Source of the DNA: an uncultured Brevinematales bacterium
GTDB taxonomy: Bacteria > Spirochaetota > Brevinematia > DTOW01
Assembly (NCBI GenBank): GCA_964475465.1
Contig: CAYYXA010000047.1
Location: 20,466-84,465, forward strand
Length of the DNA: 64,000 nucleotides
Direction: 5' to 3'
Notes under the pieces: generated by a model
The model's database searches: none
What the model was told of the DNA's origin: nothing
The model's input: the letters and a program-made list of their open reading frames with translations, nothing else
Translations under genes and position numbers: made by a program
Shown here: positions 3,309-62,395 of the stretch, piece after piece
How the letters are laid out: every line of letters begins with the position of its first letter
How positions within the stretch are numbered: position 1 is the first letter of the stretch

Positions 3309-3372
3309 AGAAAGAATTATCGGGAGAAAGGTGAAAATTTGAACAGGAGGCGTGAGCCTCCTGGTAATAAAC

Positions 3373-5789: not shown

Positions 5790-6824
5790 TTAACCACTAA
5801 ACATTTTTAAGAATCTTATATCGTTTTCATAAAATAGTCTTATGTCTGTTATGTTGTATTTTACCATTGTTATTCTTTCTATTCCCATACCGAAAGCAAA
5901 GCCTTTGACTTCGTTTGGATCGTAGCCGGCATTTTTGAATACCTGGGGGTGAACCATACCGCAGCCTGCTATTTCGAGCCATCCTGAGAATGAGCAAACG
6001 TTACAACCTTTTCCTCCACATCCTGGGCATGTTACAGCTAGCTCTGCACTCGGCTCTGTGAATGGAAAGTAATCTGTTCTTAGCCTTATTTTTGTCTTGG
6101 GGCCAAACATTTTCTGTGCGAACAGCAACATGACACCTTTTAGGTCTGAGAATTTTACATCTTTATCGACGTACAAACCTTCGATTTGGTGGAAGGTATG
6201 GGAATGTCTAGCATCTACTGTGTCCCTTCTGAAGCATCTTCCTGGAGCGACGACTGCCACAGGTGGCTTGAACTTTTCCATTGTTCTTATCTGAACTGGT
6301 GATGTTTGAGTTCTGAGTAAGTATCTATCTACTATTCCTTTTACATCTAAGTAAAATGAATCGTGATCGTCTCTAGCCGGATGGTTAGGTGGAATATTCA
6401 ATCTATCAAAGTTGTAAGATTCCAATTCTATTTCTGGTCCCTCAACTACACTGAATCCCATTTCTAAGAAGATATTACAGAGTTCTTCTTTAACTGCGTT
6501 TACGGGATGTTTTGTTGGTACAATGTCATAAAGCCTTGTTAGAGTTATGTCTACCCATTCCGATTTAAGCTTCTTTTCTATTTCCAGACTTTCGATTTCA
6601 TTTTGCTTTTTCTTTATTTCCTCCTCTATTTTTTCTTTTAGTTGGTTAACTTTGCTGCCAAATTCTTTTCTCTGTGATGGTTCAACTTCGCTTATTTTTT
6701 TTAAAAGGTCTTTTATGATACCTTTAGTGCCAACATACTTAGCTTTGATCTTAGCAAGTGATTCACTGTTGCTGACTTCTTTTATTTCGTTCGAAAATTC
6801 ATCTAAGATTTTATCTAGATCCAT
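5790..6824 (-). CDS. pheS: Phenylalanine--tRNA ligase alpha subunit.
   Basis: Class II aaRS motifs are present (FRRDTVDARHSHTFHQIEGL, FPFTEPSAE, GMGIERI). No pheT is adjacent. Confidence 0.9.
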   Translation of the reverse strand: MDLDKILDEFSNEIKEVSNSESLAKIKAKYVGTKGIIKDLLKKISEVEPSQRKEFGSKVNQLKEKIEEEIKKKQNEIESLEIEKKLKSEWVDITLTRLYDIVPTKHPVNAVKEELCNIFLEMGFSVVEGPEIELESYNFDRLNIPPNHPARDDHDSFYLDVKGIVDRYLLRTQTSPVQIRTMEKFKPPVAVVAPGRCFRRDTVDARHSHTFHQIEGLYVDKDVKFSDLKGVMLLFAQKMFGPKTKIRLRTDYFPFTEPSAELAVTCPGCGGKGCNVCSFSGWLEIAGCGMVHPQVFKNAGYDPNEVKGFAFGMGIERITMVKYNITDIRLFYENDIRFLKMFSG

Positions 6825-6830
6825 AGGAAA

Positions 6831-6860
6831 ATTATAAAGAATCTTTAGGGGCTTTTGGAA
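6831..6860 (-). promoter_or_regulatory. Candidate sigma-70 promoter for a leaderless pheS mRNA (TTCCAA-18-TATAAT).
   Basis: On the minus strand, TATAAT ends 6 nt before the pheS ATG. No Shine-Dalgarno sequence precedes the ATG. Confidence 0.25.
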
Positions 6861-7070
6861 AATTCGCAGAATTTTAGGTTGGTGGCATTTTTAACTTTAA
6901 CTTTGTTGCTAGATAGTATCTTTATACGTACCTTATTGAGAGCTGGGAGAAGTAAAATTTAACAGAAGGTGGTATTGATTTAATAGAGATTTATAGAAAT
7001 GTTGGGCTAGTAGAGCAAGTATTTAAGTTTTTATGGGTTATATGGTAGTAGCGAGGAAATATGCCAGTTG

Positions 7071-7110
7071 GTGCTAATTAGCACTTGTGCTAGATAGTAC
7101 TTGTGCTAAT
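7071..7110. promoter_or_regulatory. Array of five alternating hexamer half-sites with an 8-bp period: GTGCTA-at-TAGCAC-tt-GTGCTA-ga-TAGtAC-tt-GTGCTA. It is a candidate operator or complex RNA structure.
   Basis: Read directly from positions 7071-7108. It includes a perfect 14-bp palindrome GTGCTAATTAGCAC. It lies 35 bp downstream of the moxR stop and about 250 bp upstream of pheS. Confidence 0.5.
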
Positions 7111-7144
7111 GAAATTATGTTTGAGTTTGCGAATTTTTTTATTC

Positions 7145-8095
7145 TTAGATGTTGTGCTCTACAAATTTGACAACTTCGCTGATTATCTGTTCTATACTTA
7201 TGTTTTCTAGTTTGGCAGAGTAGTTTAGTATTACTCTGTGTCTTAGAGAATCTACCAATATTTCGTCTATGTGCTTTTTTTGTAATGTTTTATCTCCGTT
7301 TAGATAAGCTAGTGTCATACTTGCTTTGAGTATGTGTTGTGTTACTCTTGGTCCTGCTCCCCATTCAACGAATTCTTTTACTAAGGGTAAAGGTGAGTCA
7401 TTGGGCCTTGTGGCTCTGACGATTTTGACGATATACTCTACTATTTTATCTGGTACAAATGTTTTTCTTATTTCCTCTTTTATTCTGAAAAAATCATTTT
7501 TTGTTATTATTGGCTTTATGGAGGATAGGTCTGGTTCTACCTTACAGATTTTTAATTCTTCTTCTAGTGATGGATAATCAACGATTACCTGCATCATGAA
7601 TCTGTCCAGTTGTGCTTCTGGTAATGGGTATGTTCCCTCTTGTTCTAGTGGGTTTTGTGTTGCTATTACAAAAAACGGGTTTTCTAGTTCGTAGGTTCTA
7701 CCGAAGACTGTTACTTTTCTTTCTTGCATTGCTTCAAGCAATGCTGATTGTGTTTTTGGTGAAGCTCTGTTTATTTCGTCTGCTAGTAGGATGTTGGTGA
7801 ATACAGGGCCTTTCTGGAAAACTAGTTTTTTCTTACCGCTTTCTAAGTCTTCTTCTATTATGTCGAATCCGATGATGTCGGCAGGCATTAGGTCAGGAGT
7901 GAATTGTATTCTTCTGAATTCTAGGTCTAGCATTCTTGCTACTACGTTAGCCATCAATGTTTTTGCTAATCCTGGCACACCAACTATGAGTATATGCCCT
8001 TCGGAGAATAGGCAAGTTATTATCCTGCTTATTACTCTGTCTTGCCCTACGATTACTTTACTTTTCTCTTTGTTTATTTCTTCGAATAAAGACAT
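7145..8095 (-). CDS. MoxR-family AAA+ ATPase.
   Basis: Walker A (GVPGLAKT), Walker B (LLADEINRASPKTQSALLEAMQE) and the MoxR C-terminal helical region are present. Confidence 0.85.
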   Translation of the reverse strand: MSLFEEINKEKSKVIVGQDRVISRIITCLFSEGHILIVGVPGLAKTLMANVVARMLDLEFRRIQFTPDLMPADIIGFDIIEEDLESGKKKLVFQKGPVFTNILLADEINRASPKTQSALLEAMQERKVTVFGRTYELENPFFVIATQNPLEQEGTYPLPEAQLDRFMMQVIVDYPSLEEELKICKVEPDLSSIKPIITKNDFFRIKEEIRKTFVPDKIVEYIVKIVRATRPNDSPLPLVKEFVEWGAGPRVTQHILKASMTLAYLNGDKTLQKKHIDEILVDSLRHRVILNYSAKLENISIEQIISEVVKFVEHNI

Positions 8096-20669: not shown

Positions 20670-20701
20670 AGGGGATAGGTGAACCTATCCCCTGTTTTTT
20701 A
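20670..20701. terminator. Rho-independent terminator (AGGGGATAGG-tgaa-CCTATCCCCT followed by TTTTTT). It is bidirectional and is shared by the FecR gene and queD.
   Basis: It is a 10-bp perfect stem followed by a T-run on the plus strand, with an A-run upstream that supplies a T-run on the minus strand. Confidence 0.7.
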
Positions 20702-28732: not shown

Positions 28733-28750
28733 TCTCAGTGCTGAATAGCA
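28733..28750. promoter_or_regulatory. Perfect palindrome CAGTGCT-gaat-AGCACTG between rsmE and cinA.
   Basis: Read directly. It has the same GTGCT-N4-AGCAC architecture as the palindrome at 7071-7084. No T-run follows. Confidence 0.25.
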
Positions 28751-28919
28751 CTGATTTGGGGGATTGGATGACATTCGGTAAGGTTAATTTTTTGCTTAAT
28801 GTTATATTATGCTTAGTAGCACTTGGGATAATTAGTTAAGAGAGAGTCGTAGGCTTTCTATTATGTTTACTTGATAAAGTGTTTCAGATAGCACCAAAAT
28901 ATTGGTTAAAGAGAGGTTT

Positions 28920-30185: not shown

Positions 30186-30483
30186 TTTGATTATTGACAT
30201 TTCGGCTATAGTTCTAATCTCAGTACTCTTGATTTTAGGTTTGTCGTACGGGCTATATTACCTAGCTAACTACAAAGTGGTATATAACTATCTTGTTATA
30301 ACTCTTTCTTTCGTTTTATTTGTGGCTTGGAGAGTTTCAAAGTTTATCAAGCTAGGGGATACAAATGTATCTCCGTTGAAGGCTGTCTATATCTCATTTT
30401 TTAAACCATTGCTTTTGCTTATTGTTATTTTCATACTTATTTCAGTAGCAATAGTGTTATCGTTGCTTTTGAACCTTTACTGA
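30172..30483 (+). CDS. Small hypothetical membrane protein (three TM helices).
   Basis: The ORF is hydrophobic and overlaps the cinA 3' end. It has no recognisable family. Confidence 0.35.
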   Translation: MRKSSLIIDISAIVLISVLLILGLSYGLYYLANYKVVYNYLVITLSFVLFVAWRVSKFIKLGDTNVSPLKAVYISFFKPLLLLIVIFILISVAIVLSLLLNLY

Positions 30484-30626
30484 ATTTTTGTTTTAACCTT
30501 ATCAGTGCTAGAGAACGTTCTTGTTTATTTAATTTCAACTTAGCTAATACTTTTGAAGTTTAGTTATCAATTGGTGAAGTGAAGGTGTGATGGCCTTTCT
30601 AAGCAATAGGTTGAGTGTACTCTAGT

Positions 30627-31232
30627 TTAAGAAATTTGATCCAGGTTGTACCCTAGAGTGCTTAGATCTTTCTTTAATTTGTTCATAGGTACGCCTATTA
30701 TGCTTTCAATTGTGCCTTCGATGATGTTGAAGAAATCTTTAGCTATTTCTATAGCTATTCCGCCTGACCACATCTCAACGGGATTGGAATCAATGTATTT
30801 GTTTATTTTTTCGTCACTTACGTTTTTGAAGTATACAGTGCATTTGTCATGTCCTACGACAAAAATACTTTTTTCGGATGAAAATATGGTGTATCCTGTT
30901 ATTATTTCTTGAAAGTCATTTTTGTAGCATAGAAGCCATTTTCTAGCCTCTTCTTTATTAGAAGGTTTGAATTTTATGTCTCCTTGATGGACAACGACAG
31001 TGTCAAATGTGAAAAGTAAAAAGGGTTCTGTCTTTTCTAGCTTTTTGACAATGTCTTCTGCTTTTTTGTATGAAAGGTACATAGCAACAAAAACGGGGTT
31101 TGTTTTGTAAATTCCTAGTTCCTTTAGGGTTTTCTCTTCGTCAATTTCAGATTTTACAACTGAGAAATTTTTGAAGTGCTTAGAAAAAATTTTTTTTCTT
31201 CCTTCTGAGGCACTGCCTAAAATTATCTCCAT
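30627..31232 (-). CDS. maf: Maf-like nucleoside triphosphate pyrophosphatase.
   Basis: It is Maf-like at the N-terminus (EIILGSASEGRKKI) and the C-terminus (GGIAIE...IIGVP). Confidence 0.65.
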   Translation of the reverse strand: MEIILGSASEGRKKIFSKHFKNFSVVKSEIDEEKTLKELGIYKTNPVFVAMYLSYKKAEDIVKKLEKTEPFLLFTFDTVVVHQGDIKFKPSNKEEARKWLLCYKNDFQEIITGYTIFSSEKSIFVVGHDKCTVYFKNVSDEKINKYIDSNPVEMWSGGIAIEIAKDFFNIIEGTIESIIGVPMNKLKKDLSTLGYNLDQIS

Positions 31233-34439: not shown

Positions 34440-34460
34440 TAGAGAGGCTATGCCTCTCTA
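34440..34460. repeat. GC-rich hairpin element T-AGAGAGGC-tat-GCCTCTCT-A. It is copy 1 of a dispersed family.
   Basis: It is a perfect 9-bp stem with a 3-nt loop, 70 nt after the secY stop. The same arms recur at 46321 and 62375. Confidence 0.5.
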
Positions 34461-37365: not shown

Positions 37366-37432
37366 GTGTTTGAATCGTATTACGACAAGAATGTATTACA
37401 AGTTTTGATGGTGTTTTCTTGAATTTGCCTTT

Positions 37433-41263: not shown

Positions 41264-41876
41264 AAGACGACAGCACTGTTATCACCTCTTCTGCTAATAG
41301 GTTGGGTAAAATTTTACCACATACCTCTTTGTTAAATACTTTTGATATGAAAAAGGTTTGCTTTATTCTTATTCCCTTTGCCTTACATAGGTTTACAAAA
41401 TCTTTGTAAGTGAATAGATGGATGTTTGGGGTATCAAACCATGAGTACGGTAATTCCGAACTTACTGGCATTGTGCCTTTAAGTAGCAACTGTAATCTTA
41501 GTTTGTAATATCCAAAGTTAGGAAAGCTGATTATTGCGTTTTTGGATATTCTGAGTATTTCTTCAAGTAGGAGTCCGGGAGATTTTAGCTGCTGAATGGT
41601 TTTGCTTACTATCACATAGTCAAATGCTTTATCTTCTATCTCTAGGAAGTTTCTGTCTTTGAAGCCCTTGTTTATGTCATAATGTATCACGTTTAATCCT
41701 TTTGATAAGCATTCTATTACTTCGGAAGTGTCAATCTCTACTCCTACACCTTTTATGTTTTTCTTTCTTTTGAGATATACAAGTAACTCACCATCACCAC
41801 AACCTAGATCTAGAACTCTGCTGCCTTCTTCTATTATTTCTTCTATTATTTCGAAATCTTTCCTAACCTTTTTCAT
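41241..41876 (-). CDS. metW: Methionine biosynthesis protein MetW.
   Basis: It has a MetW-like N-terminus (FEIIEEIIEEGSRVLDLGCGDGELL). It lies immediately downstream of metX. Confidence 0.75.
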   Translation of the reverse strand: MKKVRKDFEIIEEIIEEGSRVLDLGCGDGELLVYLKRKKNIKGVGVEIDTSEVIECLSKGLNVIHYDINKGFKDRNFLEIEDKAFDYVIVSKTIQQLKSPGLLLEEILRISKNAIISFPNFGYYKLRLQLLLKGTMPVSSELPYSWFDTPNIHLFTYKDFVNLCKAKGIRIKQTFFISKVFNKEVCGKILPNLLAEEVITVLSSYEDSSNK

Positions 41877-43101
41877 AGACTTTCTCTTTTTTGTTCTGTT
41901 TTTCTTGAAGTGTGGCCTCAAGGAATGCTCTTATAGCCTTGCTTTCTATTTCTGTGTCTATGAGGAATGAGTCGTGTCCATTTATGCTTTCTATGTTTAT
42001 GTATGATACATCTCTACCAGCAGCTAGTGCTGCTGATACCATTTCTAATGATTCCGAAGGGGGGAATAACCAGTCAGTTGAGAATGAGATAAAGAGAAAT
42101 TTACTGTTAGTTTTGCGGAATACTTCTTTTAAGTCCCCGTTTCCGTATTTTTCAGTTAGGTCGAAGTAGTCCATCGCTTTTGTTATGTATAAATATGAGT
42201 TTGCGTCAAATCTGTTCACGAATTTTTCACCTTGATAGCCTAGGTAACTTTCCACTTCAAACTCTATGTTGTCAACATCGTATGTTTTGCCGTTTATGAG
42301 CTTCCTACCGAATTTCATGTCCATGGATTTCGAACTTAGATAGGTGATATGTCCTATCATTCTGGCAATACTCAGGCCTTTTGAAGGAGTCTTGCCTTTT
42401 TCTAGGTATTCTCCGTTTTCCCAATTAGGATCGGAAATTATAGCGTTTCTACCCACTGCATCGAATGCTATGTTTTGAGCCGAACAACTTGCCGTTGCTG
42501 CTATCACAACAGCACTTTCGACTACTTCTGGATACATTACTGACCATTCGAGTGCTTGCATGCCGCCCATCGAGCCACCTACAACCGCTAGAAGCTTTTC
42601 TATACCTAGCTGCCTTATTAGCTCTCTTTGGACTTTCACCATGTCCGATATAGTTATCGTTGGAAACGTTATTCCGTACCTCCTGCCCGTTTTGGGATTT
42701 ATTGACGTTGGGCCAGTAGTACCATAACAGCTTCCTAAGAAGTTTGAACATATTACGAAAAACTTGTTTGTATCTATACCTTTGCCAGGACCTATTACAT
42801 CTTCCCACCACCCTTCTGTAGATCCATCAAATGTTTCTTCATCCACCATTTTATGGTAACCTGCAGCATGCGCTGAACCTGATAAAGCATGACAAACGAG
42901 TACAACATTGCTTTTATCATCATTCAGTGTGCCATAAGTTTCATAAGCTACATCTATAGGTCCTGGTAAAATCTCCCCAGACTCTAATTCTAGCCCTTCT
43001 GGAAATATCTGTATGATGTTAGTCTTTACAAGCCCTACTGTTTCACCTTTTAACTCTTCAACTATGTTCCCAGTTCTCTTCTTTCTTAAAACCTTATACA
43101 T
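41863..43101 (-). CDS. metX: Homoserine O-acetyltransferase.
   Basis: The alpha/beta hydrolase nucleophile elbow is present (GGSMGGMQA), with a MetX N-terminal region (ELESGEILPGPIDVAYETYGTLN). The start is placed at MYKVL; the upstream RBS is weak. Confidence 0.8.
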   Translation of the reverse strand: MYKVLRKKRTGNIVEELKGETVGLVKTNIIQIFPEGLELESGEILPGPIDVAYETYGTLNDDKSNVVLVCHALSGSAHAAGYHKMVDEETFDGSTEGWWEDVIGPGKGIDTNKFFVICSNFLGSCYGTTGPTSINPKTGRRYGITFPTITISDMVKVQRELIRQLGIEKLLAVVGGSMGGMQALEWSVMYPEVVESAVVIAATASCSAQNIAFDAVGRNAIISDPNWENGEYLEKGKTPSKGLSIARMIGHITYLSSKSMDMKFGRKLINGKTYDVDNIEFEVESYLGYQGEKFVNRFDANSYLYITKAMDYFDLTEKYGNGDLKEVFRKTNSKFLFISFSTDWLFPPSESLEMVSAALAAGRDVSYINIESINGHDSFLIDTEIESKAIRAFLEATLQEKQNKKEKVYEKG

Positions 43102-43204
43102 TTCTGTGTAAGATCTTTTATAAATTTTATATAAATAAAGAAAAATTTTCAAATTTTCAAAATTTGAAAACTGTCTGTTGATCTTACAAGTATTTCACAA
43201 CTTC

Positions 43205-43258
43205 CCAACTCGTTGAGTTTCCAACTCGTTGAGTTTTCAACTCGTTGAGTTTCCAACT
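43205..43258. repeat. Tandem direct repeat of a 16-bp unit (CCAACTCGTTGAGTTT), about 3.4 copies. Each unit contains the hairpin AACTC-gtt-GAGTT.
   Basis: Read directly. It lies in the 530-bp divergent region between metX (minus strand) and the FNR-like gene (plus strand). Confidence 0.6.
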
Positions 43259-43683: not shown

Positions 43684-44433
43684 TTGGAGGTTTGCATGGG
43701 GCAAGTGAAGAAACTTATACAAGGTGAGTTTGAGGTTAGGAAGATAGAAGATAATGGCAAGGGGGTCAAGAATTTTCTTTTTGAGATGAGGGATATTGAG
43801 TATATGCCTGGGCAATTTCTGATGTTGGCTTTTCCTGAGGAAGCGGCTGATAAGAAAAAGAGAAGAGCATATTCTATTTCTACTTCTCCGACAGAAACTG
43901 CTAAGACTGGTTTGGTTGGAGTTACCATAAAGCTTGTTGAGGGTGGATACTTCACTACTAGGTTGTTTGATGAAAGTTTCGTTGAAGGGAATAAACTTTT
44001 TGTGGAGGGACCTTTCGGTCATTCTATTTTCAAAACGAATAGCATTAAATCGGTTGTGTTTTTTGCAGCGGGTAGTGGTATAGCACCTGTTAGATCCGGC
44101 ATGAAGTATATATTCGATGCTATGCCTGATACCAGGGTTACACTGTTTTTCAGTATTAGGACTCCTGAGGAGTTTATATTTGAGGATGATATAAACGAGA
44201 TGTTGAAAAATCCAAATTTCAGAGGTTTTATTACTGTTACTAGGTATGAAGGTGATGATTGGAAAGGGTTAAAGGGTAGAATTGACAGAAATATAATTTT
44301 GGATAATGTTAAGGGTGATGAAGATCTCTTTTATATTTGCGGTAATACTTCCTTTGTTAAGAGTATAAAGGAGATTTTGGAGGGGGATTTAAAAGTTGAC
44401 AAATCGAAGATTATATCAGAGGCTTGGGGGTAA
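43684..44433 (+). CDS. FAD/NAD(P)-binding oxidoreductase of the ferredoxin-NADP+ reductase-like family. It lacks a C-terminal Fe-S cysteine cluster.
   Basis: The RxYS FAD motif (RAYSIS) and a GxGxxP NAD-binding motif (AAGSGIAPV) are present. The RBS is GGAGG. Confidence 0.65.
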   Translation: MEVCMGQVKKLIQGEFEVRKIEDNGKGVKNFLFEMRDIEYMPGQFLMLAFPEEAADKKKRRAYSISTSPTETAKTGLVGVTIKLVEGGYFTTRLFDESFVEGNKLFVEGPFGHSIFKTNSIKSVVFFAAGSGIAPVRSGMKYIFDAMPDTRVTLFFSIRTPEEFIFEDDINEMLKNPNFRGFITVTRYEGDDWKGLKGRIDRNIILDNVKGDEDLFYICGNTSFVKSIKEILEGDLKVDKSKIISEAWG

Positions 44434-46320: not shown

Positions 46321-46340
46321 CAGAGAGGCGTGCCTCTCTG
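46321..46340. repeat. GC-rich hairpin element CAGAGAGG-cgtg-CCTCTCTG. It is copy 2 of the dispersed family.
   Basis: It lies 13 nt after the cstA stop. No U-run follows. Confidence 0.5.
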
Positions 46341-62374: not shown

Positions 62375-62395
62375 GAGAGAGGCTTTGCCTCTCTC
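62375..62395. repeat. GC-rich hairpin element GAGAGAGGC-ttt-GCCTCTCTC. It is copy 3 of the dispersed family.
   Basis: It is a perfect 9-bp stem with a 3-nt loop, between the vWA gene end and the yqeY start. Confidence 0.5.

Follow-up and report, generated by a model that had tools for sequence, protein, structure and literature searches.

The moxR-pheS spacer of a Brevinematia-like spirochaete holds an array that is probably a small local copy of a hairpin-forming intergenic repeat family

Results

Organization of the array in the moxR-pheS spacer

In the window (the whole stretch of 64,000 nucleotides that was analyzed, with a G+C content of 36%), a spacer of 320 bp separates two genes on the minus strand: a gene for a MoxR-type AAA+ ATPase (7145-8095; Pfam AAA_3, E=3.5e-63, together with AAA_lid_2 and bpMoxR) and pheS (5790-6824; Pfam tRNA-synt_2d, E=9e-98). 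The neighbors of this pair encode SecD, SecF, and an FMN reductase, and no regulator gene adjoins it. The spacer contains a tandem array of 2.5 hairpin units with a period of 16 nt (7071-7108, plus strand), which was delimited by its sequence, by Tandem Repeats Finder (period 16, 2.5 copies), and by the geometry of the repeat family described below. Between the moxR stop and the array are 36 nt, and a further 246 nt lead from the array to the pheS ATG, in agreement with the preliminary description, which had placed it just downstream of moxR and about 250 bp upstream of pheS.

The plus strand reads GTGCTA-at-TAGCAC-tt-GTGCTA-ga-TAGtAC-tt-GTGCTA, and the five GTGCTA/TAGCAC half-sites noticed earlier are present letter for letter. 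The perfect palindrome that had been claimed corresponds to unit 1 (GTGCTAATTAGCAC, 7071-7084); it is followed by a TT gap, by unit 2 (GTGCTAGATAGTAC, 7087-7100), which has one arm mismatch, by another TT gap, and by a half unit GTGCTA (7103-7108). Each unit occupies 16 nt and consists of a 14-nt palindrome, GTGCT-N4-AGCAC, plus a gap of 2 nt. An 8-bp period had been proposed for the array; the hexamers do alternate at this spacing, but this is a special case, arising when both the gap and the part of the centre outside the hexamers measure 2 nt, and the periodicity found throughout the family is 16-17 nt. The array has plus-strand polarity, judged from the TT gaps and from unit 2, whose centre reads NNAT. 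This polarity agrees with the G-rich plus strand, yet it is antisense to both moxR and pheS.

Searching the window with the 14-bp pattern GTGCTANNTAGCAC, allowing at most one mismatch, returned three matches where dinucleotide-preserving shuffles gave an expectation of 0.06, and three or more matches were reached in none of 100 shuffles, so the regularity of the array does exceed chance, as had been supposed. The arrangement TAGCAC-N(0-30)-GTGCTA occurred once in the window, only at the array, and the same was true of the reverse arrangement. The hexamer GTGCTA taken alone was not enriched in the window (24 observed against 20 expected); the signal therefore resides in the arrangement and not in the word. 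An assembly artefact was excluded because an independent ENA metagenome contig (L032) carries an identical moxR-pheS spacer, array included.

Comparison with the orthologous spacer and the likely pheS promoter

The closest genome found was the MAG 'Spirochaetes bacterium RSWP19' (L001), with a PheS that shares 95% identity with the one encoded in the window; for the PheS of a Brevinematia MAG (L025), the identity is 74%. The moxR-pheS spacer measures ~170 bp in L001 compared to 320 bp in the window, and only the ~70 bp next to pheS can be aligned, leaving the array region without a counterpart. A TATAAT box that ends 6 nt before the pheS ATG (6825-6845, minus strand) lies within the ~70 bp kept in L001, with no Shine-Dalgarno sequence between the box and the ATG. 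Because the box is inside the conserved part, the likely pheS promoter, as read from the sequence, would lie at a distance of more than 200 bp from the array, and the pheS mRNA is probably leaderless. In the related locus L035 (13385-13428), TTGACA, 17 nt, and TTATAT precede an ATG, with TTATAT ending 8 nt before it and again no Shine-Dalgarno sequence in between.

A perfect 10-nt inverted repeat (AAAATTCGCA at 6859-6868 and TGCGAATTTT at 7128-7137) encloses 259 nt of the spacer, including the array, which is roughly the part absent from L001. This repeat could be the mark of an insertion or could have arisen by chance. A MITE bounded by it was considered and found no support in the relatives.

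Folding, termination, and promoter predictions

It had been suggested that the array, as RNA, can form alternative hairpins, and two alternative registers indeed fold. In the minus-strand RNA, an inner hairpin is enclosed by an outer stem of 8 bp; the more stable fold is that of the plus-strand RNA, with -23.3 kcal/mol for 101 nt. On either strand, however, folding remained within the range of shuffled sequences (z-scores of -1.15 and -1.54), and the 5-bp stem is marginally stable. No terminator-like site was detected on either strand of 6700-7300, where no U-run follows the hairpins, and no sigma-70-like promoter site overlapped the array. At the gathering threshold, the only Rfam match in the window was a tRNA; when positions 6780-7200 and a repeat-rich relative were scanned against Rfam with an E-value cutoff instead, only chance matches below the gathering threshold were returned.

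Other units and arrays in the window

A degenerate solo unit (GTTGCTAGATAGTATC, 6904-6919, plus strand) lies in the same spacer as the array. Its TGCTAGATAGTA (6907-6918) is a 12-nt exact copy of the core of unit 2, 181 bp away, whereas by our own arithmetic a 12-mer is expected to recur by chance within 320 bp about 0.003 times.

A second spacer with such units lies 3' of an RsmE-like gene and upstream of cinA. The palindrome CAGTGCT-gaat-AGCACTG, which the preliminary description had noted as related to the array, is located at 28736-28753 (plus strand) and not at 28733. The relationship itself is borne out: it is a solo unit of the same repeat family, with the stem extended to 7 bp, and the syntenic relatives L038 and L088 carry arrays of the GTGCT unit in their cinA-upstream spacers. 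Two one-mismatch units, ATGCTTAGTAGCAC (28809-28822) and GTGTTTCAGATAGCAC (28879-28894), both on the plus strand, are found in this spacer as well. The three units start at 28738, 28809, and 28879, with start-to-start distances of 71 and 70 nt. Together with a further unit at 30505, in another spacer, these solo or degenerate units occupy two spacers in which relatives hold full arrays.

With up to one mismatch, the window contains 12 units, compared to a chance expectation of ~4 for the whole window, and seven of the 12 fall in the 8% of the window outside long ORFs; only two units are perfect. The GTGCT family is sparse in this genome, and its local copy may represent either a remnant in decay or a seed.

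The window also has a second tandem array of period 16 (CCAACTCGTTGAGTTT, 3.4 copies, 94% match) at 43205-43258, with the palindrome AACTC-gtt-GAGTT in each unit. This array has the geometry of the GTGCT family but different arms and is situated in a divergent spacer of 531 bp between ORFs at 41863-43152 (minus strand) and 43684-44433 (plus strand).

Hairpins that are rich in G+C and have mostly purines in the 5' arm (e.g., TAGAGAGGC-tat-GCCTCTCTA) were seen at 34440-34460, 62375-62395, 46321-46340, 3344-3363, and 20670-20693, the last followed by a T-run in a terminator-like manner. The GC skew is strongly positive over positions 1-64000 and never changes sign, reaching 0.43 in 2-kb bins at plus-strand genes and falling to about zero at minus-strand genes. 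A replication terminus or dif site was rejected as an explanation of the array, given that the cumulative GC skew rises monotonically across the window.

Distribution of the repeat in related genomes

Scanning metagenome contigs for GTGCTANNTAGCACNNGTGCTA yielded 68 loci, ~55 of which were contigs with a GC content of 0.31-0.37. These contigs came from a small number of JGI samples, and many of them had several arrays, with up to six or more units in one array. Two of the contigs (L038 and L088) share synteny and ~85% nucleotide identity with the 20-39 kb part of the window, and three more (L091, L080, and L042) match the window at 70-78%, which identifies the repeat-rich genomes as relatives of the window organism. 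Spacers that are short in the window are long and filled with units in L038: 27 bp (37372-37398) corresponds to 283 bp and 163 bp (30482-30644) to 586 bp. When the moxR-pheS spacer was compared with more than 50 related loci by short-word BLAST, the matches covered only 7068-7110; the idea that the 320-bp spacer is a decayed full mosaic module was rejected on this result and on that of the module profile described below.

For a census of the family, we used 31 non-redundant related loci (293 kb) and took long ORFs as coding. Among 290 perfect GTGCT-N3/4-AGCAC units, seven were in long ORFs and 283 outside, placing 98% between genes. Unit densities per kb were 8.5 in divergent, 5.4 in tandem, and 7.6 in convergent spacers, for loci picked for containing arrays and hence with absolute densities biased upward; 25 of the 39 divergent spacers had at least one unit. 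The distances from arrays to gene starts or ends were spread from 0 to ~500 nt (3 to 527 nt to starts) without a mode.

A collection of 2.9 million viral contigs gave a single unit match, and a phage origin of the repeat was rejected accordingly. Comparison of filled and empty sites defined no insertion signature in the form of a target duplication or terminal repeats. Tandem repeats of the GTGCTAAATAGCACAT type, comprising 10-14 units separated by AT, are present on two further short contigs that come from other samples (L049, 881-1098, and L092, 197-351; one with 27% and one with 36% G+C).

Geometry, turnover, and polarity of the units

In the related loci, the unit centre was 3 nt long in 97 units and 4 nt in 231, the gap between units was 2 nt in 54 cases and 3 nt in 90, and the period was 16 in 80 cases and 17 in 61. 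The family can be described as a palindrome of 13-14 nt, with 5-nt arms GTGCT/AGCAC and an A/T-rich centre, followed by a gap of 2-3 nt; the array in the window fits this geometry with a centre of 4, a gap of 2 (TT), and a period of 16. Among tandem repeats in the related loci, period 16 accounted for 90 rows, compared to at most 12 for most other periods. An identical 16-nt layout is shown by ~20 further arm sequences, including GAGGC/GCCTC, GATAC/GTATC, GTGTT/AACAC, GATGC/GCATC, and the arms of the 43205-43258 array in the window.

Adjacent units shared an identical centre in 31% of cases, compared to 4.9% of random pairs, and orthologous arrays in contigs that are 96-99.5% identical differed by one or two whole units. 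Units thus tend to be duplicates of their neighbors, and whole units are gained and lost between near-identical strains. To assess compensation in the arms, we counted units with two arm changes that are adjacent to perfect units; in nine of the 22, both changes affected a single base pair and restored pairing (GTGTT/AACAC, GTACT/AGTAC, and GTGAT/ATCAC being such variants), whereas independent changes are expected to do so in ~4%. The units also have a direction: the NNAT centre was found on one strand over the other in a proportion of ~95 to 14, and the NNAT strand was the G-rich strand of the locus in ~70% of cases. With this polarity and G-rich-strand bias, the units are not neutral symmetric palindromes.

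Mosaic modules associated with the arrays in relatives

In the relatives, GTGCT arrays form one module of repeat-filled spacers of up to 1.1 kb (L051, 2760-3860; L042, 8270-9340; L038, 3241-3817). The modules are ordered as arrays, TTTCTTATTAA, GGAGAGTG, a variable hairpin with a complementary stem, AATAG, and a G-run such as GGGTGGGAGGGTGGG. Examples of the variable hairpin are TAGAGAGG-tgaa-ACCTCTCTA and TAAGGGAGGC-gata-GCCTCCCTTA, and the stem type with a purine-rich arm that was seen in the window forms this hairpin as well. Under a tighter definition, the G-run motif had 56 copies in 424 kb and none in shuffles; 54 of the 56 were intergenic, and in 44 of these 54 the downstream gene was on the same strand. 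Neither the window nor L001 or L025 contained the motif. With a profile derived from 53 modules found in relatives, the only matches in the window were the generic hairpins at 34440 and 62375, and the moxR-pheS spacer had none.

Repeated hairpins with GGA loops are a hallmark of CsrA-titrating RNAs, and some sister arrays of period 16 similarly display GGA in every loop in one register (L088, 8452-8527; L055, 1093-1156; L048, 9214-9267; L091, 13708-13762), for example GATAC-GGA-GTATC in 4.8 copies and GAGAC-GGA-GTCTC in 4 copies.

A multi-copy ORF family adjoins repeat-filled spacers (L035, 13420-14080; L069, 13692-14359; L066, 7063-7755; L087, 40-687; L089, 2705-3460). Its proteins are coiled-coil, with a reiterated (D/E)KRFE(D/E)(M/I)NKRFE motif, a C-terminal hydrophobic anchor, and an internal repeat number that varies by copy. 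We considered that a multi-copy gene beside the arrays might encode a mobilizing enzyme and rejected this candidate, as the only such family encodes this coiled-coil, membrane-anchored protein, which is not an enzyme.

Discussion

A probable lineage-specific repeat family

The array at 7071-7108 probably belongs, as a small local copy, to a family of intergenic repeats that is specific to a Brevinematia-like spirochaete clade, forms hairpins, and is prone to slippage. The family is restricted to extragenic positions, turns over between relatives and strains, and maintains its palindromes. We propose that the arrays grow and shrink by replication slippage or by unequal exchange between hairpin units, and that selection, or else template-directed repair inside the hairpin, preserves the capacity of the single-stranded DNA or RNA to form hairpins. 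The units may have a strand-specific function in RNA or single-stranded DNA. The copy in the window would have no gene-specific regulatory role, providing at most a modest stem-loop in moxR read-through transcripts, and is probably inert.

Alternative explanations

The polarity of the units, their G-rich-strand bias, the compensatory arms, the ~20 arm families, and the association with modules bearing G-quadruplex-type runs (GGGTGGGAGGGTGGG) in a genome of 35% GC point to a more far-reaching possibility, which we put forward as speculative and rather unlikely: that an undescribed system in the Brevinematia clade, of which the array is a local trace, multiplies any small hairpin with a stem of 5 bp and a loop of 3-4 nt, in head-to-tail order and with a fixed period of 16-17 nt. 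This system would depend on an enzyme or binding protein that is specific for hairpins and distinct from RAYT and IS200-type transposases; alternatively, the arrays could have a strand-specific structural role, for example as RNA or single-stranded DNA scaffolds.

The units could instead be sites on double-stranded DNA, spread over the genome, for an abundant protein (nucleoid-associated, a global regulator, or an insulator) that binds as one dimer per 14-bp palindrome. A strongly conserved arm with a variable centre is the usual pattern of a dimer operator, and the frequent occurrence of units in divergent spacers and the co-orientation of the composite modules with the downstream gene are consistent with such a role. 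We nevertheless regard this explanation as improbable, as compensated arms and a multitude of arm sequences argue for a structure and not for one recognition sequence, the distance to gene starts is not fixed, and copy number is unstable between strains. Moreover, a period of 16-17 bp would place successive dimers on opposite faces of the helix, and no candidate protein was identified.

Ranked after it, and likewise improbable, is an RNA element whose stem-loops, formed in an antisense transcript or in the 3' untranslated region of moxR, would act as a barrier to 3'-exonucleases, a weak terminator, or a processing site, as for some REP elements. The proximity of the array to the moxR stop in a spacer without any other terminator-like hairpin, the 8-bp outer stem of the minus strand, and the folding energy of the plus strand are in line with this role, and unit polarity and compensated arms fit a single-stranded function. 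Against it, neither strand has a U-run, the z-scores are unexceptional, Rfam yielded no match, and the polarity of the array is antisense to both flanking genes. In relatives, moreover, arrays also lie upstream of the promoters of apparently leaderless genes (e.g., L035, 13357-13420), where they would not be transcribed with the gene.

The preliminary description had offered the array as a seat for several dimers of a helix-turn-helix regulator, and this proposal did not withstand the comparison with relatives. A dedicated operator array for a helix-turn-helix or ribbon-helix-helix regulator of pheS and/or moxR, with MetJ boxes as the model, would account for regularly spaced half-sites between two genes that include a perfect 14-bp palindrome. 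We judge it very improbable. The array is missing from the orthologous spacer of L001, which keeps only the 70 bp beside pheS, and the likely pheS -10 box is over 200 bp downstream of it, with no promoter-like site overlapping the array itself; the neighboring genes include no regulator. In addition, the unit is scattered through unrelated spacers, with hundreds of copies in relatives and no fixed distance to genes, its copy number differs between near-identical strains, unrelated arm sequences share the same 16-nt geometry, and compensated arm variants are found, which a sequence-specific dimer would not favor.

A purely local accident, in which a 16-bp palindrome was duplicated once or twice by slippage and has no relation to the arrays of other genomes, would suit the mere 2.5 copies and the sparseness of the family in the window, but it is the least credible explanation, since hundreds of units in syntenic relatives have the same arms, centre length, gap, and period and further solo or degenerate units occur in window spacers where relatives hold full arrays.

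Significance of the repeat family

Recognizing a repeat family at this locus removes a tempting but wrong annotation of a regulator-binding array for pheS or moxR and explains the 7071 array, the cinA palindrome, and the 43205 array by one reading. It also adds a poorly studied spirochaete lineage to those with an intergenic hairpin-repeat family of their own, one that, as far as we searched, is undescribed: the literature consulted held no description of Brevinematia or Brevinematales repeats of this kind. The family is unusual in its rigid geometry of 16-17 nt, its many arm variants, and its fast change in copy number. Such repeats confound motif-based regulon prediction and break metagenome assemblies, and they may be usable as markers for strain typing. 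Should the family have an enzyme or binding protein dedicated to it, the REP/RAYT paradigm would be extended to a new mechanism.

Comparison with known systems

The CIRCE operator of HrcA (TTAGCACTC-N9-GAGTGCTAA) has the half-site core TTAGCAC/GTGCTAA in common with units 1 and 3 of the window array. Its core spacing is 13 nt, however, compared to 2 or 18 nt in the array; the flanking genes are not chaperone genes, and most units of the family read GTGCTT... and not TTAGCAC. With the wrong spacing and no match to CIRCE in the window at up to three mismatches, this identity was rejected.

The 8-bp metboxes of MetJ and the 7-bp heptads of the omega repressor resemble the array in being contiguous short boxes, direct or inverted, with a period of ~8 bp. 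MetJ and omega arrays occupy fixed promoter positions in a defined regulon and are conserved at orthologous sites, whereas the array in the window is neither fixed nor conserved and has a true period of 16-17 nt.

NIMEs (with dRS3) and Correia elements of Neisseria are strain-polymorphic intergenic mosaics of short inverted-repeat units and variable linkers. The composites of L051, L042, and L038 are similar in style, although there is no sequence similarity, the unit size is different, and we saw no sign of phage integration or IS-type mobilization. The window differs further in having only the hairpin-array module and no mosaic.

Close parallels exist with the REP sequences and BIMEs of Proteobacteria; in E. 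coli, BIMEs are located at the 3' ends of transcription units. Like them, the GTGCT family consists of short palindromic stem-loops in many copies that are almost exclusively extragenic, and in the relatives it is reiterated in tandem or clusters, varies between strains, and forms mosaics with other short motifs. In contrast to the E. coli BIMEs, GTGCT units are frequent in divergent spacers. REP systems involve a REP-associated tyrosine (Y1/HUH) transposase whose gene typically has REPs on its flanks. Searches for a Y1/RAYT/IS200 transposase by tblastn and phmmer, with E. coli TnpA-REP and ISHp608 TnpA as queries (identical to PDB 4ER8 and 2A6M), gave a best E-value of 0.47 in 510 kb of genome fragments, single-sequence queries of this kind being prone to miss distant relatives. 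One end of a REP palindrome carries a conserved tetranucleotide, GTAG or CGTC, by which the REP superfamilies are defined (PMC3733652). In the GTGCT family, GTAG/CTAC was found within 6 nt of only six of 327 units and CGTC/GACG near none, and the gaps of 2-3 nt between units leave no room for such a tag. A REP unit measures 20-40 nt and has a G+C-rich stem, as opposed to the 13-14 nt of the GTGCT unit and its 5-bp stem with three G-C pairs, although REPs with stems of only 5 bp are known, as in Thauera (PMC3733652). Strict head-to-tail packing at 16-17 nt and the many arm sequences within one geometry also set the GTGCT family apart. The repeat family thus behaves like REP/BIME or Neisseria mosaic repeats while standing outside the REP superfamilies.
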